Below are positions 3,142-56,550 of a stretch of 64,000 nt of DNA, piece after piece. The position numbers and the translations under genes are program-made. Origin of the DNA: an uncultured Planctomycetota bacterium (GTDB lineage: Bacteria; Planctomycetota; Planctomycetia; Gemmatales; Gemmataceae); contig CAWKHF010000005.1 in NCBI GenBank assembly GCA_963849325.1, positions 1 through 64,000 of the forward strand, read 5' to 3'. The notes below the pieces were generated by a model. That model did no database searches. It was not told the DNA's origin and saw only the letters and a list, made by a program, of their open reading frames with translations. Within the stretch, counting starts at the first letter, position 1, and the number at the start of each line of letters is the position of its first letter.

Positions 3142-3144
3142 GGG

Positions 3145-29899: not shown

Positions 29900-29960
29900 T
29901 TGCACCAGGGCACTGGAGGGGGCGGTAGCCGTCGCGTACTCGCGACCGAGCGTATGCGGA
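29900..29960. repeat. Structured repeat A, copy 2 (5' part only), fused to repeat B
   Basis: One mismatch to 33169..33229. Confidence 0.9.
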
Positions 29961-29967
29961 CCCGCTT

Positions 29968-33161: not shown

Positions 33162-33267
33162 ATGTGACTTGCACCAGGGCGCTGGAGGGGGCGGTAGCCG
33201 TCGCGTACTCGCGACCGAGCGTATGCGGAGCCCAGAGGCACCCGGTCGCCTGGATGGCGAGGTGCCC
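33162..33267. repeat. Structured repeat A, copy 3 (upstream of the full relaxase; candidate oriT/ssi region)
   Basis: Closing stem GCACC/GGTGC, hairpins GTCGCG-TACT-CGCGAC and TCGCC-TGGAT-GGCGA. Confidence 0.9.
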
Positions 33268-33517: not shown

Positions 33518-36189
33518 ATGATCCGAATCACGCAACAGGATAATGCCAGGTCAGCCAAGTCGTACTACACGGCCGGCGATTATTACAGCGAAGGCCAGGA
33601 AATCATCGGCCTTTGGGGAGGCAAGGCCGCGTCCATGCTCGGGCTCGAAGGGACGGTGGATAAGTTCTCATTCGAGCGTCTGTGCGACAATCTCCATCCT
33701 AAAACCGGCGAACACCTGACGATGCGGACGCGCACTGAACGGCGTGTCGGCTATGACTTCACCTTCTCGGTGCCCAAGTCGGTGTCGCTGCTCTACACGC
33801 TGAGCGGCGATCAGGACATCATGGAAGCATTCCGTGGGGCGGTCGATGAGACGATGCGGGAGATTGAGAAGGAGATGAAAACCCGCGTGCGGAAGAAAGG
33901 CCAGGACACGGACCGCACCACGGGCAACATGGTTTGGGCGGAGTTCATTCACACCACGTCGCGGCCGGTGGACGGCCTTCCCGACCCGCAGCTTCACGCC
34001 CATGTCTTTGTGTTCAATACGACCTGGGACAAGGAAGAGGACCACTGGAAGGCGGGCCAGTTTGCCGAGATCAAGCGGGATGCTCCATATTTCCAGGCGG
34101 CGTTCCGCGTCCGGCTGGCGAATCGGCTCCAGGGCCTGGGTTTAGGTATTGAACGCAAGCGGGATGATTTCGAGGTCGCCGGGATTCCGAAGGATGTGCT
34201 GAAACGCTTCTCGCGGCGAACGGCACTGATCGAGAAGGTGGCGGAGGAGCGTGGCATCACCGATGCGCGCCGCAAGGACGTGCTTGGCGCCGAGACGCGC
34301 GAAAAGAAGGCGAAGCCCCTGAGCCTTTCGTCACTGCGGAAGGAATGGAATGCACGGCTGAGCGACAGCGAACGCGACGCGGTTGCAAGCGTCCATCGCC
34401 GCGAGCATGCACCCGAGATACCGGAGCGTGGCGAGAAACTGGCGGTGGACCATGCCATCGGGCATTGCTTCGTCCGTGAGGCAGTGGTGCCCGAACGCAA
34501 GATCGTGACCGAGGCCCTGAAGCGTGGGCTGGGCACGGTGACGGTCGCCGGGGTGCAAGGTGAAGTGAACTCCCGGCCGCTGATAAGCAGCGAAATCACA
34601 GGCCGGAAAATGGCAACCACGACCGAAATGCTGGGCCTGGAGTCGCGGCTGATCGAATTCGCCCGCAGCGGCCGTGGGCGTTGCCGCCCGCTGGCCGACC
34701 CGAACCGCCCCATCTCCCGCGACTGGTTCAATGAAGGGCAGAAGGCAGCGGTCCGGCATGTCCTGGGCTCCCGCGACCGCGTGATGGTTATCCGTGGCGC
34801 GGCGGGAACCGGCAAAACGACGCTGGAACAGGAAATCGGCGAAGCGTTGGCTGAGGCTGGGCGGCCGGTCGTCGCCCTGGCCCAGTCGGTCAAGGCCAGC
34901 CGCGAGGTGCTTCGCGAGGAAGCAGGCTTTGCCAATGCGGACACTATTGCCCGGTTCCTGAAGGACGAGCAGATGCAACTTAGCGCAAAAGGTGGAGTCA
35001 TCCTGGTGGACGAGGTTAGCCAGGTCGGCACGCGGGACATGCTGAAGATATTCGGCGTCGCCGAAGCGGTGGTGCGCGCGTCCTTCTCGTGGGGGACCGC
35101 CGGCAGCATCGCAGCGTGTCGGCGGGCGAGCCGCTCAAGCTGCTGGAAGACCTGGCTGGCTTGCCGGTTGCCGAGGTCACGGAGATCCTGCGTCAGCAGG
35201 GCGACTACAAGAAAGCGGCGGAATACTTGAGCGATGGCCGCGTGGGCGAAGCGTTCGAGGAACTGGACAAGCTCGGCTGGGTCAGGCAAGTGCCCGATGC
35301 TGAACGCTTCCAGCAGCTCTCCGCCTGTTATCTCGCGGCGGTGGCTGAGAAGAAACGCAATGGGGAGCAAAAGACGGCGCTCGTCGTGACGCCGACGCAC
35401 GCTGAGGCTGATCGCATCACGGGTGCGATTCGCGCCGGGCTCAAGGAAAAGGGCACGCTCGGCAAGGAACGCATCATCAACGTCTGGCTCGCGACCCACC
35501 TGACGGAAGCGGAGAAAACGGACCCGACGCAATATGATCCGGGGGACATGCTCCAGTTCCATGAAAATGCGAAAGGCCATACGAAGGGATCGCGGCTGGT
35601 CCTGGGCGAGGGCGACGTGCCGCCGACCGAACTGGCCGCGCGCTTCGAGGTTTACAGGCCGGGACAGCTTGCGCTGGCGGCGGGTGATCGTATCAGGGTC
35701 ACCGCTGGCGCGAAGACCAGGGACGGCCATCGCCTGAGCAACGGGTCGCTGTTCACGGTGCAGGGATTCACGAAGCGCGGTGATATTATCGTTGATCGCG
35801 GCTGGGTGATCGACCGGGATTTTGGCCATCTCACACAGGGCTACGTTGTTACGAGCTATGCGAGTGAAGGGTCCACCGTGGACAAGGAATTCGTCGGCAT
35901 GTCCAGTGAATCCTTCCCAGCGACAAACCAGCGGACGACGTATGTCGCCCTGACGCGCGGACGGGAACAGGTCACTGTATTCACGGACGACAGGGCAGCA
36001 CTACTGAAGGCCATGAGCCGCCCGGACGATCCCATGTCTGCGACACAGCTTGCCGAATCCACGAACGGCCAAGCCGTATCGCGGAATGGCCCAGCCTTCG
36101 GCCGCAGGCACGCGGTCCCGGCGGTGCACGTAATGCAGCCAAATACGGAGAGACGTTTGCCCGAAAGGGGGCTGGATCATGAGCGATGA
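33518..36189 (+). CDS. trwC: MobF (TrwC/TraI-type) relaxase-helicase (frameshift near 35080)
   Basis: SYY..DYY, YDFTFSVPKSVS, HTTSRP..PQLHAH; helicase GAAGTGKT, VDEVS, GDRRQH, RQ, YVALTRGR. Confidence 0.93.
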
Positions 36190-36691
36190 AAAGCTTACCC
36201 ATCAGGAACGGCTGAAGCGGGCGTTCAATACGCAGGGTCAGTCCGGAGGCCCACAGAAGGAAGCGGAAGGTGAAGAAACGGAAGTCTCCTGCGGGGCGTT
36301 CGGCTATCTGCGCGGCATCCGCGATCTGCCAGGCTCCGTCGAGTTCCGCTTTCGCGATGGAAACAGCGCGTGGTTCCCCTATGGCTGGCTGGGACCGTGG
36401 AAATTCAACCCCTCCGAGGGCTTGCTGCTCAAGTTCTCCGGGGATCTCGTTTACCTTGTCCTCATTCGCGGCAGCAACCTGGACAAGCCTCTCAACGAGG
36501 GGGCGATCAACCTGACCACGGGCGGTCTGCAACGTAACCGGATCGTGTGGGTTCGCGAAATGAGCGAAGCGGACATCCGCCAGGTCGGTGACAGCGGGCC
36601 TACAATCGACAGTATTCAGGTCTGTGAGTTTGAGACCCAGGCCGCGCTCAGGGAATGGCTGACGCAGAATGCCCCGGCGTTCGTGCCGTGA
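36179..36691 (+). CDS. Hypothetical protein coupled to the relaxase
   Basis: Overlaps the relaxase 3' end; 170-aa ORF with coding-like composition. Confidence 0.75.
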   Translation: MSDEKLTHQERLKRAFNTQGQSGGPQKEAEGEETEVSCGAFGYLRGIRDLPGSVEFRFRDGNSAWFPYGWLGPWKFNPSEGLLLKFSGDLVYLVLIRGSNLDKPLNEGAINLTTGGLQRNRIVWVREMSEADIRQVGDSGPTIDSIQVCEFETQAALREWLTQNAPAFVP

Positions 36692-37181: not shown

Positions 37182-38376
37182 TCAACGCGTCGGCGGCTTC
37201 TTGACTGCGATTTCATCGAGATAGTCTGCCCACCATTGCATCATCTCGCGGCGCTCCGATAGGTACTGGGCGTGATTGTAGGCGGCCCGGACGCTATTCC
37301 GTTCGCTGTGAGCGAGTTGACGTTCTATGACATCCGCCCGGAAACCGTGCTCGTTCAGGATAGTGCTGGCCGTGCTGCGGAATCCGTGCCCCGTGGTGCG
37401 GGAATGGTAGCCCATGCGATAGAGCGCATAGAGCATAGTGTTCTCGCTCATGAATGTCGCGGGATTGTGCTCGTTCGGGAAGAGATAGGGACGGTTGCTT
37501 GAATGCTTCTGGAGTTCTCGGAGAACAGCAATTGCTTGTTTCGACAGGGGCACGATATGGAGTTCGTTCATCTTCATGCGTTCCGCCGGAATTCGCCAGT
37601 CCGCCTTGTCCCAGTCGATCTCCATCCATTGTGCTCCCCGAAGCTCCTGGGTGCGGACGAAGGTGAGCAGCAGGAGTCGGAGGCGCTAGCCTAGTCTGGA
37701 CACTGCCGTCATAGCGCTCCAGCTTTTTCAGGTACTCCGGCAGGTCGCTGGCTTTCAGGAACGAGTAATGCTTGGCAACCGGAGCCTTTAACGCTCCGCG
37801 CAGGTCGGGGACTGGGTTGCGTTCGGCCCGCCCAGTAGCAATGGCATACATGAAGACTTGCCCGCAAATCTGCATGACACGCCGGGCGGTTTCCAGGTTG
37901 CCTTTTGCCTCGACGACCCTGGCCATTTCCAGCACCTCCGGCGGAGTGATCTCGGTTACCGGCCTTTCCCCCAGCTTCGGAAGGATATGTTGTTCCAAGC
38001 GGGCAAGCATGGTTTTGGCGGAGCGTGGCGCCCATTCGTGCGCGCGTTTCTCATACCATTCGCGGGCAATGGTCTCGAACGCATTGGCGCTGTGCAGGAC
38101 GGTCAGCCGCTTAACCTCTTTCTTTGCCTCCCCAGGGTCCTTGCCGGCGGCCAGCAGTTTGCGGGCTTGCGCCCGCCGGTCGCGCGCGTCGCCCAGGCTA
38201 ATCTCCGGATACACACCGAGAGCCAGGAGCTTTTCCTTGCCAGCAATGAAATATCGCAGCCGCCAGTATTTGCTGCCGGATGGCGTGATAACCAGGAAAA
38301 GCCCTTCGCCGTCGGCGATTTTGTAAGGCTTGTTTTTCGGTTTGGCGTTGCGCACCTTGGCATCCGAGAGCGACAT
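37182..38376 (-). CDS. P4-type tyrosine integrase with arm-binding domain (frameshift near 37680)
   Basis: MSLSDAKVRNAKP..DGEGLFL..YWRLRY..LGVYPEISL; RMKM..HIVPL, HGFRSTAS, QLAH, AYNH. Confidence 0.93.
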
Positions 38377-38638
38377 GGGGTACATCCTGATGTTGGTGGG
38401 GTATTGGTCCGAGAAATGTACCCCGAAATCTGGCTGGATGTCAATAAGCTTGAATGGGCGCGGTTGATCGACCGGCTCGGCGAAAGTGGCTGTCAGCCTT
38501 GATTGTGTCGATGTGGATGGACGCGGTTGGCCAGGGATTTGGCGACCCCTACGGTCTTCACATTGATGAAATAACCGATTGTAGTATTGACCATATCTTA
38601 TGATGCGAGAAATGGAGATACCCCGGTTTTGTACCCCT
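38377..38638. other. Putative intact attP of the P4-type integrase, core = tRNA 3' end
   Basis: 38540..38554 reads CCGTAGGGGTCGCCA on the minus strand (tRNA-Glu-like 3' end with CCA); GGGGTA/TACCCC arm-type motifs on both sides. Confidence 0.7.
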
Positions 38639-40101: not shown

Positions 40102-40956
40102 ATGACTCAGTGGCAAATGAAATACGTGAAACCACAGGACATTGTGGTCAAGGAACAAGTCCGCAAGGAAATCGACCCAAAGAAGCAGGAGGAACTGAAC
40201 GTCTCCGTAAAGGCACACGGCATCCTACAGCCTTTGCTGGTGACCGTTCTCATGGTTCTCCTCGCCGGGCACCGCCGGCTCATCGCGGCCCTGGCCGCAG
40301 GGCTTGAAGCCGTTCCCGTCATCATCACGGACCGCGTTCTTTCTGACAGCGAAATCCGGGTGATCCAGTTGACCGAGAACATGCACCGCGCCGACCTCAA
40401 GCCAATCGAGCAGGTCGAGGGGGTGGAGGAAGTCGCCAGGCTCAACCCTGGGATGACCAACAAGGACTTGGCCAAGCTGCTCGGCTTCGAGGCCAGCATG
40501 ATAACCCGCCTGCGGTCGGTATCCAAAGTCACTCCTGCCGTGCGTGAAGCGTTTGCGGCCGGCAAGATCGGGCTGAGCACCGTCTACGCGATCAGCAAGT
40601 GCGAAGCGCTGGCCGACCAGGAGCAGATGCTTGCCCAGGCCCTGTCCGGCGCCAGCCGCGACACCATCGAGCAGGTGGGCCAGAGAAACCGCAAGGGGAA
40701 GTCGGCCAAGGACGAGGCTGGCAAAACCGCCAAGGTTCACTGCCTGCTGCCTACCGGGGTGCAGATCACTGTCAGCGGCAAGGGTTTGTCCCTGGGATCG
40801 GCAATCGACGCGCTGATTGACGGGATTAAGGAGATGCGGGCAGCCAAGGCCAACGGCTACACCGCCAAGACGTTCGCCGCTTCCATGAAGGACAAGGCAA
40901 GGGCGAAGCAGGCTAAGGCAAACGCAACAGCAACAGAAAACGAGGCGAAAGGATAA
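40102..40956 (+). CDS. parB: ParB/RepB/Spo0J-family protein
   Basis: GILQPLLV, LLAGHRRLIAA, ENMHRADL, HTH; RBS AGGAGG. Confidence 0.9.
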   Translation: MTQWQMKYVKPQDIVVKEQVRKEIDPKKQEELNVSVKAHGILQPLLVTVLMVLLAGHRRLIAALAAGLEAVPVIITDRVLSDSEIRVIQLTENMHRADLKPIEQVEGVEEVARLNPGMTNKDLAKLLGFEASMITRLRSVSKVTPAVREAFAAGKIGLSTVYAISKCEALADQEQMLAQALSGASRDTIEQVGQRNRKGKSAKDEAGKTAKVHCLLPTGVQITVSGKGLSLGSAIDALIDGIKEMRAAKANGYTAKTFAASMKDKARAKQAKANATATENEAKG

Positions 40957-40959: not shown

Positions 40960-41145
40960 ATGGTGCGCATCCGGCATGACATCGCTTGGGCAACGACGCT
41001 ACGCATCCTGGAGATATTTAATCTCCGCCCGGAGGAACAACACGAGGCGTTCCCGGTGGTGTACGAGCACGTCAGGGACGGACTGCTCGCTTATGAGAAG
41101 GAAACAAAGGACCTTCTTCACCGGCGGAGACTACTTAGCAACTGA
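40960..41145 (+). CDS. Small hypothetical protein
   Basis: 61-aa ORF 3 bp after parB with RBS AAGGA. Confidence 0.65.
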   Translation: MVRIRHDIAWATTLRILEIFNLRPEEQHEAFPVVYEHVRDGLLAYEKETKDLLHRRRLLSN

Positions 41146-41186: not shown

Positions 41187-42782
41187 ATGCGTCCGAGCAC
41201 TGACGACCAGATTATTTCCCTGTTCATCATCGCTGCTGTCGTGGCCATCATCTTTTTCCGCCACCGCCGCTGGCGTGGATCTGGAACGGCCTTCGGGACA
41301 TCGGCATTTATGAGCGACAAGGCGCTTCGTGCCGCCGGGATGCTGACTGGCACAGGGCTTGTCCTGGGACGCACCTTCAAGGGCGAACTCATTCGTCTGC
41401 GTGACTATTTTGCCGTCCTACTCTGCGGCACCCCAGGATCGGGTAAGGGAATCGGAATCATCATCCCTAACCTGCTTGCCTATCGGCGTGGCTCGATCAT
41501 GGTTTTCGACACCAAAGGCGATCTCTACGAGACGACGGCGGGACCACGTGCCGCCTGGGGAGAATGCATCCGCCGGCTTGCACCGTTCAACGGAGGTGAG
41601 GACGCATTTAACCCTCTTGACACGATTCCCAGTGACAGCCCGACGCTCGTGGACTCGGCACGCGCGCTTGCAGAGGCGCTGGTAGTTCGCCAGGGAACGG
41701 AGCCCGATCCCTATTGGAACGACAAGTCCGTCCAGGTGATTTGCGCCGTACTGGTCCTCGTACTGCTGCGGTTCACGGGCGAAGACCGCAACCTTAGCAC
41801 GGTACAGGAAATTGTAAGCGATCCCGACCTGTTGAAAGCCGCGTCCAGCATGCTGCAAGACATTGGTGGCATTCCCGGACGGCTTGGGGCGCAGTTGAAA
41901 ACTCATTTCGACAAAGCGACCTCGGCATTAACCAAGGAAGGCACCAGCGTGTTGGGCTGTGTAACCCGCCATTTATCTTTCCTGGATTCAGAGCTGGTTG
42001 CAAAGGCCATTGCCAGCAGTACGTTCGACCCGGCTGAGTTGCGTAAGCCTGGCATCACGCTGTTCTTGCAGATACCTCCCGACCAGCTGGAAGCCCAGAA
42101 AGGGTTGCTTCGCTGCTGGGTTACCGCCCTGGTGCGCGTGATAGGCGCTGTCGGCGATGAGCGGGACGGTGAAACCCTGTTCCTGCTGGACGAAGCGTCG
42201 GCGCTGGGCTCACTCCCGGCAATCGAAGAAGCGATGGTACGCGGACGTAGCGCGGGTATCCGGCTGCTCATGGCGTACCAGTCGGACAGCCAGATTACCA
42301 CGGCCTTCAAAGGTAAGCCCAGCCTGCTTTACGATAATTGTTCCGCGCAAATCTACCTCGGCGCTCCCAGCAGTTACGAGACCGCTGAGCGACTTTCTAA
42401 GTCTCTAGGGGCCTGGACACAGGTTATCGAACAGTACAGCGAAAACGAATCGCACTCGTGGCAGGCGGGCTCCATGTCGTCGGAGGGCGGCCAGGCGAGC
42501 CGTGGCAGTTCCCTGAGCTACTCGGAAACCGAGAGATCCCTCAAACGGCCAGAAGAGCTACTTCAACAAAGCAACGATCGCGTCATCGTGCTGCAACGCG
42601 GAAGCTTGCCAATCCTGGCGAACCGCGTGAAGTGGTACGCGGACCCGGAGTTCAATCCCGCATTGCCACGGCAACGCAAGCCTTGGTTCCGGTGGAACAC
42701 TGTGGGCTGGCAATGGCGGCTATGGGCAGCAGGCGTCCTCGCCTTGATCCTGTTGGGCCTGATTAACAGGTCGAATCACTGA
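41187..42782 (+). CDS. virD4: Type IV coupling protein (VirD4/TraG family)
   Basis: N-terminal TM helix, FGTSAF, Walker A GTPGSGKG, FDTKGD, FNPLD, Walker B LLDEASALG, YQSDSQ. Confidence 0.92.
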   Translation: MRPSTDDQIISLFIIAAVVAIIFFRHRRWRGSGTAFGTSAFMSDKALRAAGMLTGTGLVLGRTFKGELIRLRDYFAVLLCGTPGSGKGIGIIIPNLLAYRRGSIMVFDTKGDLYETTAGPRAAWGECIRRLAPFNGGEDAFNPLDTIPSDSPTLVDSARALAEALVVRQGTEPDPYWNDKSVQVICAVLVLVLLRFTGEDRNLSTVQEIVSDPDLLKAASSMLQDIGGIPGRLGAQLKTHFDKATSALTKEGTSVLGCVTRHLSFLDSELVAKAIASSTFDPAELRKPGITLFLQIPPDQLEAQKGLLRCWVTALVRVIGAVGDERDGETLFLLDEASALGSLPAIEEAMVRGRSAGIRLLMAYQSDSQITTAFKGKPSLLYDNCSAQIYLGAPSSYETAERLSKSLGAWTQVIEQYSENESHSWQAGSMSSEGGQASRGSSLSYSETERSLKRPEELLQQSNDRVIVLQRGSLPILANRVKWYADPEFNPALPRQRKPWFRWNTVGWQWRLWAAGVLALILLGLINRSNH

Positions 42783-42811: not shown

Positions 42812-43132
42812 ATGGCTCGGAAGATTGGTGAAGGGCACGTGGCAGCAATGGCCCGGCTGGGCCTCAAGGAACTGCGCAACGCGCTCAATCCGTCGCGTGA
42901 AAGCGTGGCCGACAACGAAATCGGCTTGGTCGGCACTGCAACGCAAGGGGAGATCGCCGATGCGCGGGACGGCCCCGGAAAAGGCTCGAACCAGGAATCG
43001 CGCGTCGGAAACGTGAGCCTTAATGATCTTCGTGCCTATGCGAAGGAGCTTTCGCAGGCCGAGGAGAGAAGCCGGGAACAAAGCAGAGAGCAAGTTCAGG
43101 AACGTGATCGAGGCGGGCACGAATTGGAGTAG
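42812..43132 (+). CDS. Hypothetical protein with charged SLxDLR...ELE tail
   Basis: RBS AAAGGAGGT; tail VSLNDLR..ERDRGGHELE. Confidence 0.8.
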   Translation: MARKIGEGHVAAMARLGLKELRNALNPSRESVADNEIGLVGTATQGEIADARDGPGKGSNQESRVGNVSLNDLRAYAKELSQAEERSREQSREQVQERDRGGHELE

Positions 43133-43170
43133 TGTCCGTTCAACCATAACTCGCCCACAAGGAGTTCGCT

Positions 43171-43323
43171 ATGTCCGGTGATTACTTTTTGTTTCTGGTC
43201 GTCTTCGTGAGTCTAGCCCTCATCGGCTTCCGCAAGTTTATGCGAAACGTCGATCCCGAAGGCAAGATCACAACGACTACGCGGGACGGCATCGTCGGGA
43301 AGATCGGCAAGTGGCTGTCGTAA
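43171..43323 (+). CDS. Micro membrane protein A1 (50 aa)
   Basis: Manual translation MSGDYFLFLVVFVSLALIGFRKFMRNVDPEGKITTTTRDGIVGKIGKWLS; RBS AAGGAG. Confidence 0.8.
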   Translation: MSGDYFLFLVVFVSLALIGFRKFMRNVDPEGKITTTTRDGIVGKIGKWLS

Positions 43324-43388
43324 CTGTGCGGCGGGGGCGCGCGCCCCTGCTGTTCTTCAACCTCAATTTCGCCCAGAAGGAGTTTCTT

Positions 43389-43544
43389 ATGGATGGTGGA
43401 AATGTATGGGGCTACCTGTTCCTGTTCGGACTGGTACTCCTCGGCCTTCGCAAGATGTGGAGCGCGTTTGATTCCGGCGGCAAGGTCAAGAGTGCCGCCC
43501 AGAATGGTCTGGCTGGCTGGATCAGCAGCCTGTTCAAGCTGTAA
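43389..43544 (+). CDS. Micro membrane protein A2 (51 aa), paralogue of A1
   Basis: MDGGNVWGYLFLFGLVLLGLRKMWSAFDSGGKVKSAAQNGLAGWISSLFKL; RBS AAGGAG. Confidence 0.8.
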   Translation: MDGGNVWGYLFLFGLVLLGLRKMWSAFDSGGKVKSAAQNGLAGWISSLFKL

Positions 43545-43602
43545 CCCACGGCGGCGGGGTGCGCTCAACCCCGCCGCCTCTTACAAGAAAGCGAGGTGAT
43601 TC

Positions 43603-43791
43603 GTGGACTTCGTTGGGATTATTTTCTTCTCGCTCTACGCGGGCATCTGCGCCCTGTTCGGGGCCGGATACTACCACTTCGCATGGGGAGTGGGAACGAT
43701 GAAGCGCGAACTGGCAGAAGCTCGCGAGAAGCTCACCGCGCTGCAGAAGTGCAGCGGCACAACGGCAAATGACGCCGTGAAAGCGGCGTGA
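43603..43791 (+). CDS. Micro membrane protein B1 (TM plus coiled coil)
   Basis: RBS GAGGTG; TM helix then MKRELAEAREKL. Confidence 0.8.
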   Translation: MDFVGIIFFSLYAGICALFGAGYYHFAWGVGTMKRELAEAREKLTALQKCSGTTANDAVKAA

Positions 43792-43849
43792 ATGTTTGGA
43801 GGCGGGGCACGCTAGCCCCGCTTCCTCTTACAAGAAAGTGAGGTGATAC

Positions 43850-44017
43850 ATGGTGCTGTTTATTGCGTTGCTTCCTACCCTCGTCGGCGCCGCGATGCTT
43901 GTCATCGGCGTTGCAATGCTGATCCGTGAACAAGGACAGAAGGAGCGGAAGATGGCCGAGCTGGAAGCTGAACTGGCCGAAGCCAAGGAAAAGACCGGTG
44001 CGCAGAAGGCTGAGTGA
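43850..44017 (+). CDS. Micro membrane protein B2 (55 aa)
   Basis: Manual translation MVLFIALLPTLVGAAMLVIGVAMLIREQGQKERKMAELEAELAEAKEKTGAQKAE; RBS GAGGTG. Confidence 0.8.
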   Translation: MVLFIALLPTLVGAAMLVIGVAMLIREQGQKERKMAELEAELAEAKEKTGAQKAE

Positions 44018-44069
44018 TGGTGCGGGGCACGCCCATCCCGCGTTCTCCAAGAAAGTGAGGGAAGTTCAG

Positions 44070-44213
44070 ATGGAAGGTTTCATTGTCTGCGTCGTGGTCG
44101 CTGCTATCGTTTGGGCGATCTTTATCCGCAACGGACTCAGGGACGAGCGGAAGATGGCTGAGCAGGAAGCCGAACTGGCGGAAGCCAAGCAAAAGCTGGC
44201 TGCCAAGCAGTGA
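44070..44213 (+). CDS. Micro membrane protein B3 (47 aa)
   Basis: MEGFIVCVVVAAIVWAIFIRNGLRDERKMAEQEAELAEAKQKLAAKQ; RBS GAGGG. Confidence 0.8.
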   Translation: MEGFIVCVVVAAIVWAIFIRNGLRDERKMAEQEAELAEAKQKLAAKQ

Positions 44214-44265
44214 GGAAAGGACGGGGCCGCCCAGCCCCACCTCCTTTTCTTCCGGAGGAAATGCG

Positions 44266-44796
44266 ATGAGTAACAAACACGCGAAACTCGCCGAGCAGTT
44301 GTTGTCGGTGCGGGCGACCACCCGCAGCTTGGTCACGAGCATGCTGACCGATAACTGGCCGAGTGATGCGGCCGTCGTCGATTTTGGTGTCGATAGCCGG
44401 AAACACTACGAAGCGCTGTGCTTCCCGATCCGCGAAGCGGAAATCATGCCGAAGGAGCTGGATGCAGCTTTAGGTGACGGAATGCGGCTCACCACACTGA
44501 CACGGAACGCGGATAGCAATCCGCACAAGGATGTGGAATTCCACACGGCGATGGATTTGATACTTGGGCGGAACGACAAAACTGCGACCCGCACCATTCA
44601 TCTTTCCCCTCCAGATGCTGCCGATTTCTGGCGGTGTCAGGGCCTGAGTCCTCCCTGGGAAACGCAGGCCGGGCTGCATCGGTCTGCTCCAACAGCAGAA
44701 GACGGGAAAATTTCGCTGGGAGATTTGCGGACCCGATCACAGGAGCGCGAGAGCGGGGAAGCTCAGCGAAGTAAGTCGATGGAGTTTGAACGGTAA
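44266..44796 (+). CDS. Hypothetical protein with SLxDLR...EFER tail
   Basis: RBS GGAGG; tail ISLGDLRTRSQERESGEAQRSKSMEFER. Confidence 0.75.
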   Translation: MSNKHAKLAEQLLSVRATTRSLVTSMLTDNWPSDAAVVDFGVDSRKHYEALCFPIREAEIMPKELDAALGDGMRLTTLTRNADSNPHKDVEFHTAMDLILGRNDKTATRTIHLSPPDAADFWRCQGLSPPWETQAGLHRSAPTAEDGKISLGDLRTRSQERESGEAQRSKSMEFER

Positions 44797-44849
44797 GGCG
44801 GTCGGGCCAAGCGACGGCGCCTATAGCCCGTTGAAAGGAACCGAGAGAC

Positions 44850-45209
44850 ATGCGCAAGGAACAGGAACCGCAGGCCGGCGGAAGCTGGCTTGAGAAGAAG
44901 CTAGCCACGATGGACGCGATCTATCGCAGGTTTGGACGCGATGGTCTCAAGGACCATTCCGTGGCCGATGTGGGCCTGCTGCTGTCGTCGAAGGAGCTTC
45001 AGCTCGGGGATGCAGCCAAGGGCCGTGACCTTGGCGAAGATCAGAAAGCGGCGAACCGACAGCTAGCGCTGGAGATCAAAGACCTGACTGCCTACATCAA
45101 GGGCCAGCTTGTTGGCTTGAGCCTTTCTGACCTGCGCTCATTCCGGCAACCTGATCGCCCGCGCGAGCACGAGCCGCAGAAGCGCCGGGATGTTGAGTTG
45201 GAGAGATAA
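44850..45209 (+). CDS. Hypothetical protein with SLxDLR...ELER tail
   Basis: RBS AAAGGA; tail LSLSDLRSFRQPDRPREHEPQKRRDVELER. Confidence 0.75.
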   Translation: MRKEQEPQAGGSWLEKKLATMDAIYRRFGRDGLKDHSVADVGLLLSSKELQLGDAAKGRDLGEDQKAANRQLALEIKDLTAYIKGQLVGLSLSDLRSFRQPDRPREHEPQKRRDVELER

Positions 45210-45211: not shown

Positions 45212-45559
45212 ATGAATACCAACGCGAAAAACCGCTGGGCCGACATCTGGCAAGCAGAATGTGAACGGGCCGCTTTCCATGCCGCTGCCTTGCTGCGCAT
45301 CGCGCGAATGTATCCGAGCAAAGCGGCGATCCTGGAAATCATCCGCACCGCGCCTCGGTCACCGGATGAGGAACAGGACCCGGAGACATCTCCGTTCTTT
45401 CGCTATGCGAGGGCCGCACGGACGATGGCCCAGTCTTGGGATGACGATCTACTTCGCAGTATTTGGGACTACTTCGTTCATCTGGCATCGATGAAACCGG
45501 CAAGGCGTGCATTCCTGGAGGCATCGCTTGCAGGTGTGCTGATCGGCGCGGAACAGTGA
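45212..45559 (+). CDS. Hypothetical protein
   Basis: Starts 2 bp after the preceding stop, same operon. Confidence 0.65.
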   Translation: MNTNAKNRWADIWQAECERAAFHAAALLRIARMYPSKAAILEIIRTAPRSPDEEQDPETSPFFRYARAARTMAQSWDDDLLRSIWDYFVHLASMKPARRAFLEASLAGVLIGAEQ

Positions 45560-45614
45560 GGCCCGGGAGCTGGGGCCAGGAGCGGGACTGGGGGATGGAG
45601 AGGTGAGGGCTGCA

Positions 45615-45926
45615 ATGAGCGTGCAAGAACAACTGGACAAAATCGAAAAACTGCTCCTCGTCCTGGTTGAGCGCCAGCAGGTGAGAGAGTGGTACACCAC
45701 TGAGCAGGCCGCCACGTTTCTGGGCAAGGGAGTCTATACGGTCAGGGAATGGTGCAGGAGGCACCGGGTGAATGCAACGAAAAAGGCAAGCGGCCGTGGC
45801 GGCTCCAAGTCATGGGCACTGTCACATACTGAATTGCTCCGAATCCAGCGCGAGGGCCTGTTGCCTGGCCGGCGCAGCGGGGCTGGCTTGCTAAGCCTGC
45901 TGAAATCTGAGGGAGAAGGGCTGTGA
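45615..45926 (+). CDS. Excisionase-like HTH (HTH_17) protein
   Basis: EWYTTEQAATFLGKGVYTVREWCR..SWALSHTEL. Confidence 0.8.
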   Translation: MSVQEQLDKIEKLLLVLVERQQVREWYTTEQAATFLGKGVYTVREWCRRHRVNATKKASGRGGSKSWALSHTELLRIQREGLLPGRRSGAGLLSLLKSEGEGL

Positions 45927-46879
45927 TCGAGACACTGACGCTGCAACTGATCATTGACAACCGTGGCGGTCTCCTGGCCGAGCTGCACGGGCGGCAGGCG
46001 ATTGCTCGCGACTACGTTCGCGGCGTGGCCCGCCAGTACGCCACGGGCGCGTACCTGTTCGGGCGGCCTGGAACCGCCAAGACACATACGGTGCGGGCCG
46101 TGCTGGAGCAGGAAATCCGGGAAATCTTCACCTACCAGCGCGGGCACATTACGCCGATGGGCCTGTTCGAGCTGATCGCCAGCCATCCGGATGAAGTGAT
46201 CGTCCTCGATGACCTAGGTGCCGTCCTGAAAAGCGACGTGGCGTTGCAAATCCTGTTGTCGGCTCTGGAGCACCCGAATTCGCGGGACCGCAGTCGCGTG
46301 GTCAAGTACCGGCGGCAGGGGCGGGAAGAGCGTGCCGTGTTCCGGGGAGGAATCGTCTGCATCTCCAACCGGGAATTACACGACGATGAGCTGCTCGGGG
46401 CGTTCAAAAGCCGGGTCCACACGCTTAATTATGACCCCACGGACGCCCAGCTCGGGGCACTGATGCTCGACATCGCAGACCGGGGCTGGCCAGGCGGATC
46501 GGCCAATCCCGAAATCACTGCCGACGCGGCCCGGATGGTCGCCCACTACCTGATCGGCGAAATGCTGCGGCTTTCCTGCCGGTTTGACCTGCGCCTGCTC
46601 GTCAACAAAGCCTTCCCCGATTACCAGCAATGGATGGATGGCGAGGCGGAATCCGACTGGCGTGACCTGATTACCGCGTCCATCGAGGAGCACCTGGTCG
46701 CCGTCAGGCATGCCGAGGAGTCGCCGGTGCCGCGCGAGGAACGCAAAAGCGAGGAGCATTCAATCTTGCAGGAGATCATGCGGGTTCATCCGTCTCGGGA
46801 AGATCGCGTGCGGGCCTGGATGGAACGGACTGGCAAGTCGGAGCGGGCCTTTTACCGGCGTCTGGCCGAGATGAAGTGA
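45923..46879 (+). CDS. P-loop NTPase with C-terminal HTH, possible replication protein
   Basis: Walker A GRPGTAKT, IVLDD, CISN, AFKSR; C-terminal GKSERAFYRRL; GTGA overlap. Confidence 0.75.
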   Translation: MIETLTLQLIIDNRGGLLAELHGRQAIARDYVRGVARQYATGAYLFGRPGTAKTHTVRAVLEQEIREIFTYQRGHITPMGLFELIASHPDEVIVLDDLGAVLKSDVALQILLSALEHPNSRDRSRVVKYRRQGREERAVFRGGIVCISNRELHDDELLGAFKSRVHTLNYDPTDAQLGALMLDIADRGWPGGSANPEITADAARMVAHYLIGEMLRLSCRFDLRLLVNKAFPDYQQWMDGEAESDWRDLITASIEEHLVAVRHAEESPVPREERKSEEHSILQEIMRVHPSREDRVRAWMERTGKSERAFYRRLAEMK

Positions 46880-47892: not shown

Positions 47893-48606
47893 CTACCGGG
47901 CGGCTGCCTTTTCCTCCTTCACCCCGAGGACAATCTCCACGGGAACCCACATCATCTTCCTTTCCGTGCTCTCGATGCGGAAGCCAGCGGCCTCCAAGGA
48001 CTGGCGGGCGAAGATCGGGCGGCAGTCCACCAGGTTGGGGAAATGCCGGTGGCTCCACTCGAAGGCGTGCAGGATGACACCGCCCTCGCCTTCCTTGGAA
48101 ACCCCGACGACCACGATCCGCCCCTCCTGCCGCAGGACGCGCTGGCACTCGGCCAGGACCTTGGGGATCTCCGGCGTATCGAACAGTTCCAGCGTAAAGC
48201 TCATGAAGATCGCGTCCACCAAATCCGACGGGTAGGGCAGCTGCACGGCGTCGCCACAGGTCAGCTCCACCCGGTCGGCCAGCCCTGCCTTGTGTAAGTT
48301 GTCCCGGGCCACGTCGAGCATTCGCTCTGAGAGATCGAGGCCATACACTTTGCCGGTCGGGCCGACGGATTGGGCCAGAGACACGAGGCTATGGCCGGTC
48401 CCGAAGCCGATTTCCAGCACCTTCTCCCCAGGCCGCGCGTCGAGTTTCTCCAGCCCGGCCCGGCGGACGGGCCCCTCGCTGTGCTCGGCTAGCAGGTCGT
48501 AGACGTGGCTGATTTTGTCGTAAAACGCCTTCGTCTCAGCCTTGGACTGGAAGACGCGCTGGATTTCCGGCTCGTCTGTAGCTTGGGTGGTCGCGGTTTG
48601 TGTCAT
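47893..48606 (-). CDS. Class I SAM-dependent methyltransferase (UbiE-like)
   Basis: VLEIGFGTG, GLDLSERML, GDAVQLPY, RVLRQEG. Confidence 0.9.
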   Translation of the reverse strand: MTQTATTQATDEPEIQRVFQSKAETKAFYDKISHVYDLLAEHSEGPVRRAGLEKLDARPGEKVLEIGFGTGHSLVSLAQSVGPTGKVYGLDLSERMLDVARDNLHKAGLADRVELTCGDAVQLPYPSDLVDAIFMSFTLELFDTPEIPKVLAECQRVLRQEGRIVVVGVSKEGEGGVILHAFEWSHRHFPNLVDCRPIFARQSLEAAGFRIESTERKMMWVPVEIVLGVKEEKAAAR

Positions 48607-48679
48607 CGTTCTCCCCTTTCGGTTTGTTCGCGCTCTGAGTTTTGCGCCATTGGGGCTCTGTCCGGGTTGCCCGCGGTCT

Positions 48680-49510
48680 CTAGGCTTCTTTCGCGGCATG
48701 ATACTCCCGGCGAATATGCTCAAGATCCACCGAGGGTGAAGGGAATTTCATGTCCAACCCTTCCAGGTATTCGACGACGATCCGTGCTATCGCGAGGTTC
48801 CGGAACCACTTGTGGTCGGACGGGATGACGAACCAGGGCGCCTGTTGGATACTGCAGCGGGACAGAACCTCCTCGTAAGCCGCCGTATAGTCGTCCCAGA
48901 ACTTGCGCTCCTTGTAGTCGGCCTCGCTAATCTTCCATTGCTTGGCCGGATCTTCGAGCCGCTCCTTGAAACGAGTCAGTTGCTCTTGCTTGGAAATGTG
49001 CAGGTAGAACTTGAGGATGTGGGTGTTGTCCTCGACGAGTCCCTGCTCGAACGCGTTAATCCGGTCGTATCGTTGGGACCAGACCGCTTGCGGGACCAGG
49101 TTGTGAACGCGGACGACGAGCACGTCCTCGTAGTGGGAGCGGTTGAAAATGGCCACTTCTCCCTTGGACGGCACGGCCCGGTGAATCCGCCACAAGAAGT
49201 CGTGTGCCAGTTCCTCAATAGTCGGCTGGCGGAACCCAACCACACGACAGCCCTGGGGGTTCATCGCTCCCAGGATGTGGCTGATCGTCCCGTCCTTGCC
49301 CCCCGTGTCCATCCCTTGCAAGCAGATCAGGAGGGAGCACCGTCCGTCCGCGTAGAGCAACTCTTGCAGCTCGCGCAGCTTTTTCCGGTCTTGCTCGATT
49401 TCCTCGGCCGCGTCCTTGTGGCTCTCGTGGTGGTCCTTGAACCTCGGATCGATGTCTTTGAGCTTTACTTTGCTGCCGGGTGCCACTTTGAACCGATTGA
49501 CATATTTCAC
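48680..49510 (-). CDS. ppk2: Polyphosphate kinase 2 family (class III-like)
   Basis: QGMDTGGKDG, HDFLWR, FNRSHYEDV, PSDHKWFRN. Confidence 0.93.
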   Translation of the reverse strand: MKYVNRFKVAPGSKVKLKDIDPRFKDHHESHKDAAEEIEQDRKKLRELQELLYADGRCSLLICLQGMDTGGKDGTISHILGAMNPQGCRVVGFRQPTIEELAHDFLWRIHRAVPSKGEVAIFNRSHYEDVLVVRVHNLVPQAVWSQRYDRINAFEQGLVEDNTHILKFYLHISKQEQLTRFKERLEDPAKQWKISEADYKERKFWDDYTAAYEEVLSRCSIQQAPWFVIPSDHKWFRNLAIARIVVEYLEGLDMKFPSPSVDLEHIRREYHAAKEA

Positions 49511-49673
49511 CTTGAGCCTCCTACCTGGATGCGAGCGTCATGCTAGATTTCGCAGGACGAAAATGGATTGCATTGCGATTGCGAGTTTCATCCACACGCA
49601 CACACGCCAGTACACCTCGCCCGCGGCAACTGACATTGAATCCGTGAGTTCGATCGGATTGTAACTTTGCACG

Positions 49674-50567
49674 TCAGGGTGTCTTTCCTTTGGACAAGGA
49701 TTCGTAGCCGGATAGGACGTCGAATAATTCCTCATCAATGGAAGTCTGGCGCAGGCGGCGGAACGTCTGATTCAAGGTTCCCAGCAGTTCGTCAATGTTT
49801 TTCTCGGCTCGTTGCATGGCGGCCAAGCGGCTCGCGTTTTCGCTGGCCAACGATTCGGCGCAAGCCTTGAAGAGCGAAACAAAAAGATACTCCCGCACGA
49901 GTGCCGACAGCGTTTGCACCTGGCTTCCTATGACCTCGGGCAGGGTTTTTGTTGGCCACGGGAGATGGGCCAGCCGGACTCCCCATTGTGCATCCAGGGG
50001 CAGCAGGCGTTGACTGACCGTTTCATAGGTCGCCCCGGACCTGGGGCCGTTGTGGAAGAGGTAAAGTTGACCGATCTCCCCCGTGCCGTGATGCGCCTCA
50101 CTTTCAACGAGAATCTGCCCGACGAGCGGCGTGATGGCGTTGACGGAAGTCGGAACGGCGAAAAGTCCGACCGGCGCCAAACCGGCATCCGCCAGCCGCG
50201 CGTGGATGCGCTCACCGACCGCCCAGACTTTCTTTTCGCCGGGCAGAGCATTCAGCGCTGTAACGACAAAATCAGCCAGCACATCATTGAATTGGCCGAC
50301 GAGTCCCTGATCCGAGCCGAAGACGATGGCGCACACCGTCTTCACATTGTCTGAACGGCGACCTTGTTCGGCTGTGGCCATTCCCTGCTTCCTCAGGCAG
50401 ACAAGCAAACCCAACTCCACGGTGCGATAATAGTCGGCCAGGGCCAGCACGGACTTCTCATATTGGCCGATGCTCGCGGCTGCCAGGGCCTTCATCGAGC
50501 GGACCACGGATTCCAGATCACCCGCTCCGTTGATTTTGCGGCGCAAACTCGCCAGGGTATCGCTCAT
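49674..50567 (-). CDS. atpG: N-ATPase gamma subunit
   Basis: [34 protein letters not shown]. Confidence 0.95.
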
Positions 50568-52123
50568 GGTTTCCCCTTGGTTTCGGGAGCGGGTTTTGGC
50601 TGGAACGACGCGATCGCTGTGCCGGCGATTTGCAGAATGGCTTTGCGGTCCTCGTCGCTCAACGGGTCCTTAGAGGAAAATCGTTTACGAACCTCGGCCG
50701 GGATGTCCGCGGCCGATTTTCGCAGAGCTTGCTCGGCATCGCGCACCTTGTCAATTGGCACGCTATCCAGCAGACCGGCGGTGAGCGCCACGAGGATGAC
50801 GATTTGTTCGGGAACGGACGCGGGCTCGAACTCCGGCTGTTTGAGGACTGCGCGGATTCGCTGGCCATGGTCGATGATCTTGCGGGTGTGTTCATCGAGC
50901 CGAGTGCCGAACTTGGCGAAAGATTCCAGCTCGGTGAACTGCGCGTACGCGAGCTTGAGATCGCCCGCCACCGCACGGTAGGCCGCCCGTTGTGCCTTGC
51001 CGCCGACGCGTGAGACGGACTTGCCGACATCGACGGCGGGAAGAACGCCCAGCTCGAACAGCGTCGGCGAGAGGTAGATCTGCCCGTCCGTGATGGAGAT
51101 GAGATTCGTCGGAATGTACGCGGAGATGTTCTGCGCCTCGGTCTCGATGATGGGCAGTGCGGTGAGCGAGCCGCCATGAAAGTCGTCGCCGAGATGAGTG
51201 GCACGCTCCAGCAGCCGCGAGTGGATGTAAAAGATATCGCCGGGAAAAGCTTCGCGACCGGGTGGGCGGCGCAGCAGCAAGGAAAGCTCGCGATAGGCCC
51301 GTGCGTGGTGGGTGAGATCGTCGTAAACGATGAGTACGTCCCGGCCCGCTTCCATGAAATGCTCCGCGATGCTGGTTGCGGCGTAGGGGGCGATGTAGGC
51401 GAGCCCGGGCGGGTCGTTGCCTTCAGTCACGACGACGACGGTGTAATCCATGGCGCCTTTTTCGCGCAGGTTGGCGACGACCTTGGCGACGGCGGACGCA
51501 CGCTGGCCGATGGCGCAATAGACGCACAGCACATTTTGGCCGCGCTGATTCAGAATCGTGTCAATAGCGATGGCGGACTTGCCGGTTTGCCGATCGCCGA
51601 GGATCAGTTCACGCTGGCCGCGGCCGATCGGAATGAGAGCATCGATGACGATGAGGCCGGTCTGCAGAGGAACGGTGACGGGAGCGCGGTCCATGATGGG
51701 CGGGGCGGGGCGTTCGATGGGCAAACGCTGGCTGGAGGCGACCGGCCCTTTCCCATCGAGTGGCCGGCCCAACGGGTCGATGACGCGCCCGATCAGTCCA
51801 TCGCCCACCGGCACGTCCATCACGCGCCCCGTGCGCTCGACTTCAGCGCCCGCGTGGAGGTGCTCGCAATCACCAAGGAGCACGACGCCGATTTCGTCCT
51901 CATCGACGTTGAACGCAATGCCGTACAGATCCCCGGGAAACTTCACCAGTTCATCAAAGCCCACGCCCGGAAGGCCCGAGACTTTGGCGATGCCGATGGA
52001 GACACTCGTGATCGTCCCCACCTCACGCGGCGTCATTTGCGGTGTGAAAGTTTCCAACGTCCGGCTGATACCAGCGAACGCCTGATCGAAGACGGTATGC
52101 AGGCTATCCGGCGAGTTGTTCAT
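50564..52123 (-). CDS. atpA: N-ATPase alpha subunit
   Basis: [36 protein letters not shown]. Confidence 0.97.
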
Positions 52124-53034
52124 TAGTCCCCCTTAGGAGCGGAGGGTACCGGTGCAAACCCAGGCTTGGATTCAGCCTTTGGCTCTTGCTTGGCTTTAGC
52201 CATTGACTCGGGTATGACCTCAGCCTTTGGCTCGGACTTCACTTCGGGCTTCGGCTCAGGTTTCGCTTCGGCCTTCGCATCCTTGTGCAGAAGTTCGCCG
52301 GCGCTTTTTTCCATCATCGTGAGATAATCCGAGATGCTCCAGGCCACCTTCTGTCCGTTGGTGGAGAGTTCGATGCCGCTGACCAGCTCGGGCACGGTCT
52401 CGAACTGGATGTGAATATCAGCCGAAAAGGTTTCGTTCAGCGCTGTTTGTATCACCGCGCGCTGCTCCGGCGGCAGATCGAACGCGCTGCGCACACGCGC
52501 CGGTTGGGTCGAAGTCTTGAGAGCCGCGGCCAATTGCTCCTTGGCTGCGCCCGTTAACGCGCGCAGGCGCTGAACGAACACGTCCCCCATGCGTTCCTCA
52601 AGGCTGGTGGTGGAGAGGTCCGCCAGCGTCTTTCGCGCGATGGCAAAAACTTGCTTCTGCGTCCAGCGGGTAATTTCTTGACTGAGGTTCCGTTGTTCCT
52701 TTCGCATTGCGTCCTGGCGTTTGGCACGCAACGAGTCGGCATCCTTTCGTGCTTCGTCGATGATCCGTTGCCCTTCGCCGTTGGCCTCGTCTGTGGCTTT
52801 TTTCAATAGCGCTGCACGCTCCTGGTCGAAGGCCTCGTTCTTGTGCTGAAAGTCGTCGCGCTCCTTTTGCGCTTCAGCCTTCTTCGCCTCGGCCTGGGCG
52901 AGCTGCGCGGCGATCCCTTTCTCCCGCTCGTCGATGGCGTGGAGGATGGGTTTGTACAGGAATCGCTTCAACAACCACACCAGGATGAGAAAGTTGATTG
53001 CTTGTGCGACGACGGTGAACCAATCGATCGGCAT
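52123..53034 (-). CDS. atpF: N-ATPase b subunit (b-delta fusion type) with Pro/Lys/Glu tail
   Basis: [41 protein letters not shown]. Confidence 0.93.
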
Positions 53035-53037
53035 GGC

Positions 53038-53319
53038 TCACCTTCCTGTGCTTTGGGCAATGACGTGGTTCCAAAACGGGTTGGCGAAGATCAGAATCAT
53101 CGAGACCACGAGACAATAGATGGCAATGGATTCGATCATCGCCAGTCCCACGAACAAGGTTCGTGTGATGGTGCTTGCGGCATCGGGCTGTTGTGCCAGC
53201 GCATTCAAAGCCGTGGAGACCGCCCGCCCTTCGCCCAGCGCGGGCGCGATGCTCCCAAGTCCCATCGTGGCGCCGGCGGTTATGATTGAAACGATCGCGA
53301 TAAGTGTCATGCTGTCCAT
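53038..53319 (-). CDS. atpE: N-ATPase c subunit
   Basis: ALGEG, AQQPD loop, LAMIESIAIY. Confidence 0.95.
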   Translation of the reverse strand: MDSMTLIAIVSIITAGATMGLGSIAPALGEGRAVSTALNALAQQPDAASTITRTLFVGLAMIESIAIYCLVVSMILIFANPFWNHVIAQSTGR

Positions 53320-53349
53320 ACGTGTCCTTTCGTCGCTAGTGGTCTTGTT

Positions 53350-54021
53350 TCATCCTTCGCGGGTTCGCGTGGCGGCTGCGATGTAAACGGTGGCGAGGAT
53401 GCTGAAAATGTAAGCCTGCACCATGCCGGTGAGCAAACCGAGCAGGTTCATAAAGATCGGGAAGATGAGGGGCGCGATCGTCAGCAAGATGCCGACAATC
53501 AACGTCCCGCTCATGATGTTGCCGAACAGCCGGATGGCCAGAGCAAACGTGCGTGAGAACTCGCTGATGATGTTAAACGGCAGCATGATGAACGTGGGCT
53601 TCAAGTAGGATTTGAGGTAACCGACAAATCCTTGCTCCTCAATGCCGAAGAGCAACACGGCGACAAACACGGAGATCGCCAGCGCCGACGTTGTCGAGAG
53701 CGAGCCGGTGGGCGGTTCGTACCAGGGGAGAATCGCGCAGAGGTTGGACACCGCGATGAAAAGAAATAAGGTGCCAATAAAGCCGAGATACTTCTCCGGA
53801 TGGAGCAGGCCCACCTCTTTGATCTGCTTTTGAATCGTCGTGACCACGATTTCAAGGAAGCCTTGCCAGCGTGAGATATCCCCTTCGGTTTTGAGCTTGC
53901 GTGTGATTAGCATCGCCCCAACGGTCATCACGAGCATCAACGCCCAGGTCGTGACGATCGTGCTATTAAGCACGACAAAGCCCCACTTCCAGAAGACCAG
54001 CTCGTCGGGACTAATCCGCAT
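53350..54021 (-). CDS. atpB: N-ATPase a subunit
   Basis: PPTGSLST, ALAIRLFGNI, VQAYIF..LATVY. Confidence 0.95.
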   Translation of the reverse strand: MRISPDELVFWKWGFVVLNSTIVTTWALMLVMTVGAMLITRKLKTEGDISRWQGFLEIVVTTIQKQIKEVGLLHPEKYLGFIGTLFLFIAVSNLCAILPWYEPPTGSLSTTSALAISVFVAVLLFGIEEQGFVGYLKSYLKPTFIMLPFNIISEFSRTFALAIRLFGNIMSGTLIVGILLTIAPLIFPIFMNLLGLLTGMVQAYIFSILATVYIAAATRTREG

Positions 54022-54328
54022 TGCTAGTCTCCTTTTCCAATGGAGTCGGGTCCTTCGCAGGCGCTCGTGTGAGCCATTTCACGACGATGACGCGCGCGAT
54101 GACAAATCCAGCAAGGCACGCCAGGAACCTCGACCAATGATCCTGCGAGACAAAATAGAAACCAGCCAGAACCGTACCGGTTCGCAGCAGCAAGCTGCCG
54201 AGGAACCAGAGCGCTGACCTCTCGGACGCAACGCCCTTCTGGACCGTCCACCAAAGGCCGCCGAAGAAGAACGCGCCGAGCAAGGCGCCGGCAAGCGACG
54301 CCAGGGCAAGAGCCAGGATGTCATTCAT
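54011..54328 (-). CDS. atpR: N-ATPase AtpR subunit
   Basis: FFGGLWWTV..SLLLR..GFVIAR; position in the atpDCQRBEFAG order. Confidence 0.88.
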   Translation of the reverse strand: MNDILALALASLAGALLGAFFFGGLWWTVQKGVASERSALWFLGSLLLRTGTVLAGFYFVSQDHWSRFLACLAGFVIARVIVVKWLTRAPAKDPTPLEKETSNAD

Positions 54329-54642
54329 CCGGATCCTCCTGCATTTCCTTGTATTCGGAGGCGACCCAATGCCAGGCATTCAAACAGCCGATGATCAAAC
54401 CAAGGAGAAGCAGCATCAGCGTCCATGAAAACCGACTCGGATAATGGTTGTCCACCCAGATGCCGAGCGCGGCGCCGATCAGAGTCGGAACCGTCACGGA
54501 CCAACCGATCAACCCGGACATGCCCAGGCCAAACCAGACGCTCCTTTTGGCGCCGCGCTGCGCCTTCCGCTTGCGCGCTGCCTGTGCGCCGACCTGCCGG
54601 CTGAAGTTCGTCTCTTCGTTTGGGACGTTCACTTTGTTCTCT

Positions 54643-54650
<8 letters not shown>
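54321..54650 (-). CDS. atpQ: N-ATPase AtpQ (AtpZ/AtpI-like) subunit
   Basis: GLIGWSVTVPTLIGAALGIWVD..GCLNAWHW. Confidence 0.88.

Positions 54651-56546
<1,896 letters not shown>

Positions 56547-56550
<4 letters not shown>

Follow-up and report, generated by a model that had tools for sequence, protein, structure and literature searches.

A conserved two-part C-terminal tail on unrelated small proteins encoded behind a VirD4-type coupling protein in a Gemmataceae element

In the first 64,000 nucleotides of contig CAWKHF010000005.1 (contig C5 of assembly GCA_963849325.1; hereafter, the window), from an uncultured member of the Gemmataceae (Planctomycetota), three small proteins encoded behind a VirD4/TraG-type type IV coupling protein (T4CP) end in the same two-part C-terminal tail. 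The tail is conserved in homologues and sits on unrelated bodies, and its inner core goes with one T4CP clade. We regard the tail as genuine and conserved, and as a variation on the C-terminal signals already known from type IV systems. On sequence grounds it is probably a bipartite signal for T4CP docking and export, made of a general end and a lineage-specific docking helix; because the inner motif goes with one T4CP lineage, it likely addresses these proteins to the pump.

The shared tail and its conservation

The three genes, all on the forward strand, encode P2 (106 amino acids; 42812-43132), which is the first gene behind virD4, P1 (176 amino acids; 44266-44796) and P3 (a conserved small protein of 119 amino acids; 44850-45209). 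Their tails read VSLNDLR..ERDRGGHELE, ISLGDLR..RSKSMEFER and LSLSDLR..KRRDVELER, respectively, i.e., an SLxDLR core, a charged spacer of 15-35 residues and an E[LF]E(R) end. The cores are SLNDLR in P2 (43016-43033, with the Ser just before a predicted helix at residues 70-100), SLGDLR in P1 (44713-44730) and SLSDLR in P3 (45120-45137), and the starts of the three open reading frames (ORFs) are preceded by purine-rich, ribosome-site-like stretches. No mutual BLASTP match was found among the bodies at E ≤ 10, no common DNA match longer than 15 nt was found among the genes (BLASTN), and the codons of the three cores differ, which argues for conservation of the tail at the protein level. A recent DNA duplication of the tail was ruled out, given the lack of DNA homology among the three genes. 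None of the proteins matched a Pfam, PHROGs, NCBIfam or PADLOC family, and the AlphaFold2 model of P1 was unusable (pLDDT 49.6).

Among 56,753 six-frame ORFs of at least 50 amino acids in the genome, 11 carried the core near the end, 13 the end pattern, and only P1, P2 and P3 both, confirming the claim of the initial annotation that three unrelated proteins share this tail. Independent parts would give 0.0025 two-part ORFs, a figure that overstates the contrast since the pattern was derived from these three proteins. A looser two-part pattern returned five ORFs, the same three and two on a second, similar element on contig C1, and matched no chromosomal six-frame ORF of the genome outside the two elements. 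A profile hidden Markov model of the tail, which with 34 positions has little power, gave eight matches among 1.84 billion representatives and no new family; these comprised P2-like tails or tails like those of a 184-aa family, a probable chimera, a protein that is visibly repetitive and a 994-aa protein in which nine stretches matched. No paper describing this tail turned up in a literature search, which most subscription papers lay beyond.

Homologue searches returned 425 sequences for P2, 178 for P3 and 157 for P1, and conservation was scored in the best 120 of each, query included, with the core defined as xLx[DE][LVIF]R within the last 50 amino acids. The core was kept in 117/120 P2, 119/120 P3 and 61/120 P1 homologues, and the acidic-hydrophobic/Arg end in 112/120, 108/120 and 106/120, respectively. 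The motif is thus conserved in homologues, and its absence there was what the initial annotation had named as counting against its own idea. In P2 and P3 the L, D and R columns of the core were 95-100% conserved while the flanking spacer varied, and the core lay 21-42 residues from the C-terminus in nearly all homologues. The remaining P1 homologues had near-variants (e.g., GLKDL), a different core (e.g., AFKEVL) or no core, and GLxELR was the tail core in 28/120. Homologues of P2 were matched in 3/401 genomes at the phylum level (alignment as query) and 24/301 at the class level (P2 as query). P2 had no tblastn match in PLSDB plasmids, and a profile later matched two plasmid genes weakly (E ~1e-5).

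The core and the coupling-protein lineage

We examined 142 loci (five from the window's own genome), chosen by similarity to the window proteins; 130 held a T4CP. In a FastTree phylogeny of 114 T4CP segments, clade A was supported and included the window's T4CP (531 amino acids; 41187-42782, forward strand; Pfam PF02534, E = 5.5e-68). Clade B comprised a divergent type, and 'C' denotes all remaining T4CPs, which are not a clade. Nine partial or frameshifted loci were assigned to A by identity and L094 by hand; L103, L159, L089, L152 and L042 were dropped as duplicates or near-duplicates, and L040, a copy of L036, was omitted as well. ORFs were counted if they lay on the same strand at most 9 kb downstream of the T4CP and ended in a charged tail.

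The core was present in 37/48 such ORFs behind clade-A T4CPs, 0/32 behind clade B and 1/57 behind 'C' (1/89 beside T4CPs outside clade A), against a background of 61/13,645 ORFs. Counted by locus (those having such an ORF), the figures were 22/26 for A, 0/17 for B and 1/41 for C. The 37 clade-A ORFs were 22 P2 genes and 15 other cargo genes in nine loci. Overall, the core sits on six to seven body families, seven representatives of which had no meaningful mutual BLASTP match; P3 and a 147-aa family look remotely alike by eye and may be remote relatives. On unrelated bodies, tail similarity scored 25.6 for pairs from the same clade-A locus, 22.6 for pairs from different clade-A loci and 16.8 for pairs from different clades. 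In an unfiltered search for shared tails over all ORFs of each locus, spurious ORFs dominated the result (248/19,841 pairs vs 217/17,160 on the opposite strand).

Beside other T4CPs the same bodies carried other cores, i.e., AFxExLxG on P1 in L065 and L108 and TFQNIL on P3 in L141, and single loci had matching cores on different bodies, in L141 (AFQQIL and TFQNIL), L143 (LEEARQRA on P1 and P2) and L144. Two complete plasmids of cultured Isosphaeraceae likewise had cores of their own behind the T4CP, LPSPSEIAN on two proteins of pSINAC03 and SPGDLAEGKGV on three proteins of PALBO2, where SPGDLA also occurs near the N-terminus of the gene behind the relaxase. In the window's own genome, the five two-part ORFs all lay on two clade-A elements and none on the other three elements. 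These patterns bear on the idea that the tail tags early element proteins for a host factor, such as a protease or chaperone, which would control how long they last. Degrons are in some cases short C-terminal tags found on unrelated proteins, but the two-part pattern occurs on no chromosomal ORF outside the two elements and the core changes with the element inside one genome, where host factors are identical, making a host-factor tag very unlikely.

The divergent T4CP of clade B (L044-L058; ~500 amino acids) apparently has no N-terminal membrane anchor; its gene is followed by one for a separate ~200-aa membrane protein (20/21 loci) and then by P2. In another locus, five tandem P1 paralogues, most with short charged ends, lie behind a clade-B T4CP (L068, 9517-11534).

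P1 is built from a conserved ~103-aa body, a ~35-aa insert and a tail module like that of the unrelated 184-aa family (49% over 55 amino acids), and one P1 homologue, P0249, keeps an older tail internally with a new tail appended; tails therefore behave as modules. On a tree of P1 bodies (93/120 rows), tail type needs nine changes vs 31.3 when shuffled. The chimeric look of P1 and P0249, together with clade A being one lineage in which some cargo lacks the core, would fit a tail without any dedicated receptor, which arose incidentally as modules were shuffled between tandem small genes and was then passed down in a single element lineage. This explanation is distinctly unlikely in our view, as the three tails lack DNA homology, the core L, D and R of P2 and P3 stay nearly invariant beside a variable spacer, and different common cores recur independently on the two plasmids and in L141, L143 and L144.

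A P2-like gene was found in 120/130 T4CP loci (profile built from these loci), so P2 looks like a core partner of the pump and not merely cargo, contrary to its earlier description as one effector among a set. Besides the tail core, P2 carries a GLKELR-type motif (116/120 homologues) and a TQGEIA-type motif (119/120). One P2 homologue, P0363, has the core at both ends, SLQDLR near the N-terminus and SLDDLR in the tail. The P2 model is of low confidence (62.3 overall; ~80 only at residues 71-90) and has no stable fold but three separate helices, two of which begin right after the Thr of TQGEIA and the Ser of the core; as modelled, the core would be an N-capped short helix. P1 (in 19 loci) and P3 (in 13 loci) are optional members of a variable small-gene array, which also holds small membrane proteins, pentapeptide-repeat proteins and a DUF4313 protein.

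The near-constant presence of P2-like genes, as for a structural partner, and the three similar motifs of P2 favor another possibility, namely that the tail docks on the T4CP or a partner (the ParB-like protein, a 61-aa protein or P2) and that the proteins are not exported but act inside the donor as adaptors, regulators or inhibitors of competing elements. The presence of up to five T4CP elements in this genome and the failure to find a mating-pore ATPase in it point the same way. However, the strict C-terminal placing and the relaxase-like end fit export signals, and the cargo bodies vary widely, including the pentapeptide-repeat and DUF4313 proteins, such that docking without export appears rather unlikely.

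Comparison with known type IV signals

Type IV systems overall lack a consensus signal (PMC10025392). The tails described here resemble those of Agrobacterium VirB/VirD4 substrates (VirF, VirE2, VirE3 and the last 48 residues of RSF1010 MobA) in being short, hydrophilic and at the extreme C-terminus, and the Agrobacterium signals, as portrayed in the accessible text of two sources, likewise span 30-50 residues, sit on unrelated proteins and use a VirD4-type T4CP (PMC10025392, PMC8525350). All of the P1-P3 tails are hydrophilic and lie within the last ~50 residues. In contrast to the Agrobacterium signal, their net charge is about zero rather than positive, they have an extra conserved inner core, and no VirB system accompanies them. 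The Arg consensus of Agrobacterium-type signals is said to be R-X7-R-X-R-X-R, a pattern that matched 2, 0 and 0 of 120 homologues in the three families. Mean net charges of the last 30 amino acids were -1.5 for P2, -1.3 for P1 and +1.9 for P3 (-3, +1 and +1, respectively, for the window's own proteins), and the proposal of an Arg-rich charged signal had to be abandoned.

The XVIPCD of Xanthomonas effectors (X-Tfe) is closer in layout, by which, and not by sequence, the two were compared. It has an inner conserved region followed by a Gln/Glu/Arg-rich tail of ~26-42 residues; the inner part binds the all-alpha domain (AAD) of VirD4, and both parts are required for transfer, according to the available portion of PMC8740702. 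The inner part here is a six-residue motif, whereas that of XVIPCD is a folded ~90-residue domain. No alpha-alpha-beta-beta-beta domain of the XVIPCD type was evident, i.e., there was no Pfam match, the bodies are non-homologous up to the core and the P2 model holds only separate helices. The ends (ELE, FER, LER) differ from the acid-free Arg end of XVIPCD, and, unlike for XVIPCD effectors, no toxin domains or adjoining immunity genes were recognised. The tail fits the membership features of neither the Agrobacterium signal nor XVIPCD, yet would work like both.

F-type plasmids are known to transfer small proteins of their own along with DNA, with ParA, ParB, SSB and PsiB of pED208 accompanying it and depending on the T4CP (PMC8406263), and the same has been proposed for polyvalent proteins (PMC5512222). 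The window's element also encodes an ArdC-N/MPTase protein and a methylase-helicase. The accessible sections of these two papers describe no common C-terminal peptide for such proteins, and P1-P3 match no family.

Relaxases carry part of the tail. The MobF relaxase-helicase of the element (33518-36189, forward strand; in two frames, 33518-35230 and 35089-36189) ends in GLDHER (tail, ERRLPERGLDHER), such that the similarity claimed earlier holds for the terminal D/E-x-E-R part and not for the core. This terminal part is common to relaxases of all T4CP clades, and two alphaproteobacterial MobQ relaxases on T4CP plasmids have similar ERDR-rich tails. The same tail had been ascribed to the DarB-like protein (the label is that of the initial annotation), a 1953-aa methylase-SNF2 helicase (14898-20759, reverse strand), whose tail is instead particular to its own family (MTFQERIA..., in 5/6 own-genome copies displayed). 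It and five own-genome paralogues share the C-terminal motif [MT]-[TS]-F-[QR]-E-R-[ILV]-A, and a 170-aa conserved gene that overlaps the relaxase stop (36179-36691, forward strand), by its position a candidate relaxosome accessory protein, starts with the similar T-[HF]-Q-[ED]-R-L.

As a probable export signal, the tail would be recognised by the element's own VirD4-type T4CP, which would route the proteins into DNA transfer with the relaxase. The terminal E-x-E-R-type part, common to relaxases of all clades, could act as a general export cue, and the core, by analogy with XVIPCD, as a clade-specific docking helix for the substrate-binding all-alpha domain of the T4CP. P1, P3 and the like would then serve as exchangeable cargo with a role in the recipient. 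P2, which has three motifs of this sort and keeps a constant position behind virD4, may be an adaptor or gate-keeper of the pump. A complex prediction for T4CP residues 40-495 and the P3 tail alignment scored 0.11 and 0.22 against a mark of 0.32; it was run without controls and is used neither way.

Several observations weigh against such an export signal. The core is missing from the relaxase, which is the only obligate substrate and whose tail type is found across T4CP clades; the near-zero net charge is unlike that of the Agrobacterium signal. Clades B and C showed no clear excess of tail similarity (16.5-18.2, pooled, vs 16.8). About six real clade-A cargo genes are without the core (L034, L039, P1 of L060, L076, L077 and L094), and one non-A locus (L115) carries it. 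Because clade A is a single clade, the link between core and clade is one event and could be co-inheritance, and supported branches of the P1 body tree force only one tail-type change, with repeated swaps not demonstrable. The core pattern was tuned after part of the loci had been viewed, not blind, on loci picked for their resemblance to the window. No VirB4 was found in this 84.7%-complete genome (PF03135, PF19044 and PF12846 below cut-off; TraU/IcmB-type and TraC_F models not searched), and a survey of 144 family genomes (143 at ≥90% completeness plus this one; mostly drafts) gave VirB4-like matches in two, PF03135 in one and PF19044 over cut-off in another. A set of effectors co-transferred to recipients, as originally envisaged, needs a channel, and with no VirB4 found in this genome or in 142/144 family genomes that part of the proposal was not upheld. 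A T4CP-directed signal is still the best reading of the tail, as the core is almost confined to genes behind one VirD4-type clade, although the signal is not of the Arg-rich type.

The element and its transfer route

The window opens contig C5 of an 8.16 Mb genome, and its closest related loci are in Gemmataceae, Isosphaeraceae and other Planctomycetota records. The G+C content of 1-62 kb (0.54-0.63) is below that of the contigs (~0.65), and this stretch ends near a tRNA-Ser with an integrase. The integrase at 59546-61159 adjoins tRNA-Ser(GGA) and marks the probable right end of the island; no pair of att direct repeats was found in 10-50 kb, nor was the tRNA-Ser end found a second time on this contig, and the island may run past the contig start. 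The stretch encodes the MobF relaxase-helicase, a tyrosine integrase (37182-38385, reverse strand, split in two frames), a ParB-like protein (40102-40956, forward strand) of a family found in 105/125 T4CP loci, the T4CP, ArdC and the 1953-aa methylase-helicase, with relaxase and T4CP both placed on the element by PF08751 and PF02534 matches. A 61-aa conserved gene without a family match precedes virD4 (40960-41145, forward strand). Behind P3, on the forward strand, are a 115-aa ORF (45212-45559), an HTH_17 excisionase-like gene (45603-45926) and an AAA-type ATPase-like gene (45923-46879). The genome as a whole has five T4CP genes and six TrwC-domain matches.

Between P2 and P1, on the forward strand (43171-44213), lie genes for five proteins of 47-62 amino acids (43171-43323, 43389-43544, 43603-43791, 43850-44017 and 44070-44213), each with one hydrophobic N-terminal stretch and no tail, and of two paralogous kinds, the first of which recurs in ~20 related loci. 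Their upstream hairpin and ribosome-site sequences are repeated (repeats D2, D7 and D17), and the proteins are candidates for a pore part, entry exclusion or a toxin. Two uncharacterised proteins of ~300-400 amino acids with hydrophobic N-termini, encoded beside many T4CPs (L178, 6721-8855, and 28 related loci) and not in the window's element, are candidates for envelope parts.

Other features of the window include a second MobF relaxase (22731-23852), truncated to its TrwC domain, and a 64-100 nt repeat (22378-22474, 29900-29963 and 33169-33267; also on contig C4), which precedes each of the two relaxase genes, recurs at a third position and is a candidate oriT. The relaxase and the integrase, as well as ArdC (26823-27831) and a histidine kinase (5674-7291), are split into two frames, through assembly indel errors or decay. 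An IS110 transposase is at 28359-29486, an IetA/IetS-like defence pair of AAA ATPase and subtilase (PADLOC) at 1000-4119, and a cargo block with a methyltransferase, PPK2, an N-ATPase-type ATP synthase operon with AtpR, and phosphoketolase at 47893-59009.

With an integrase, a relaxase, a T4CP and no VirB4 found, the element falls under the working definition of integrative mobilisable elements (IMEs) and mobilisable plasmids that carry their own T4CP (PMC5357655), yet potential helper pores are rare. The closest plasmid T4CPs are those of planctomycete plasmids and of small plasmids from Alphaproteobacteria. In streptococci, IMEs use the pore of integrative and conjugative elements in the same cell, whereas VirB4-like matches were found in 2/144 genomes across this family. 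TrwC (MobF) was present in 61/144, as many as 15 times in a single genome; orphan relaxase-T4CP elements are in excess in this family. The annotation tables of pSINAC03 and PALBO2 list no VirB-type genes. According to the accessible part of a 2024 plasmidome preprint, mating pair formation genes occur on 1/4 relaxase plasmids of the phylum and no conjugation between planctomycetes had been reported by then; its supplement may list chromosomal relaxases. Planctomycetes are not mentioned in the portion of PMC3158045 that was available.

Tentatively, and at low odds, Planctomycetia elements may move DNA and small proteins without a VirB4-type pore, via the T4CP, P2 and the small membrane proteins, with lineage-specific six-residue helix codes separating the cargo of co-resident elements. 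The substrate choice of T4CPs is poorly resolved, and a six-residue core that changes with the lineage allows swaps between cognate and non-cognate tails; plasmids of cultured strains (pSINAC03, PALBO2) have such sets. With the tail as a guide, proteins that these elements may carry as cargo can also be listed, all of them without a family name, and the excess of relaxases over VirB4 in the family points to an unexplained transfer route.

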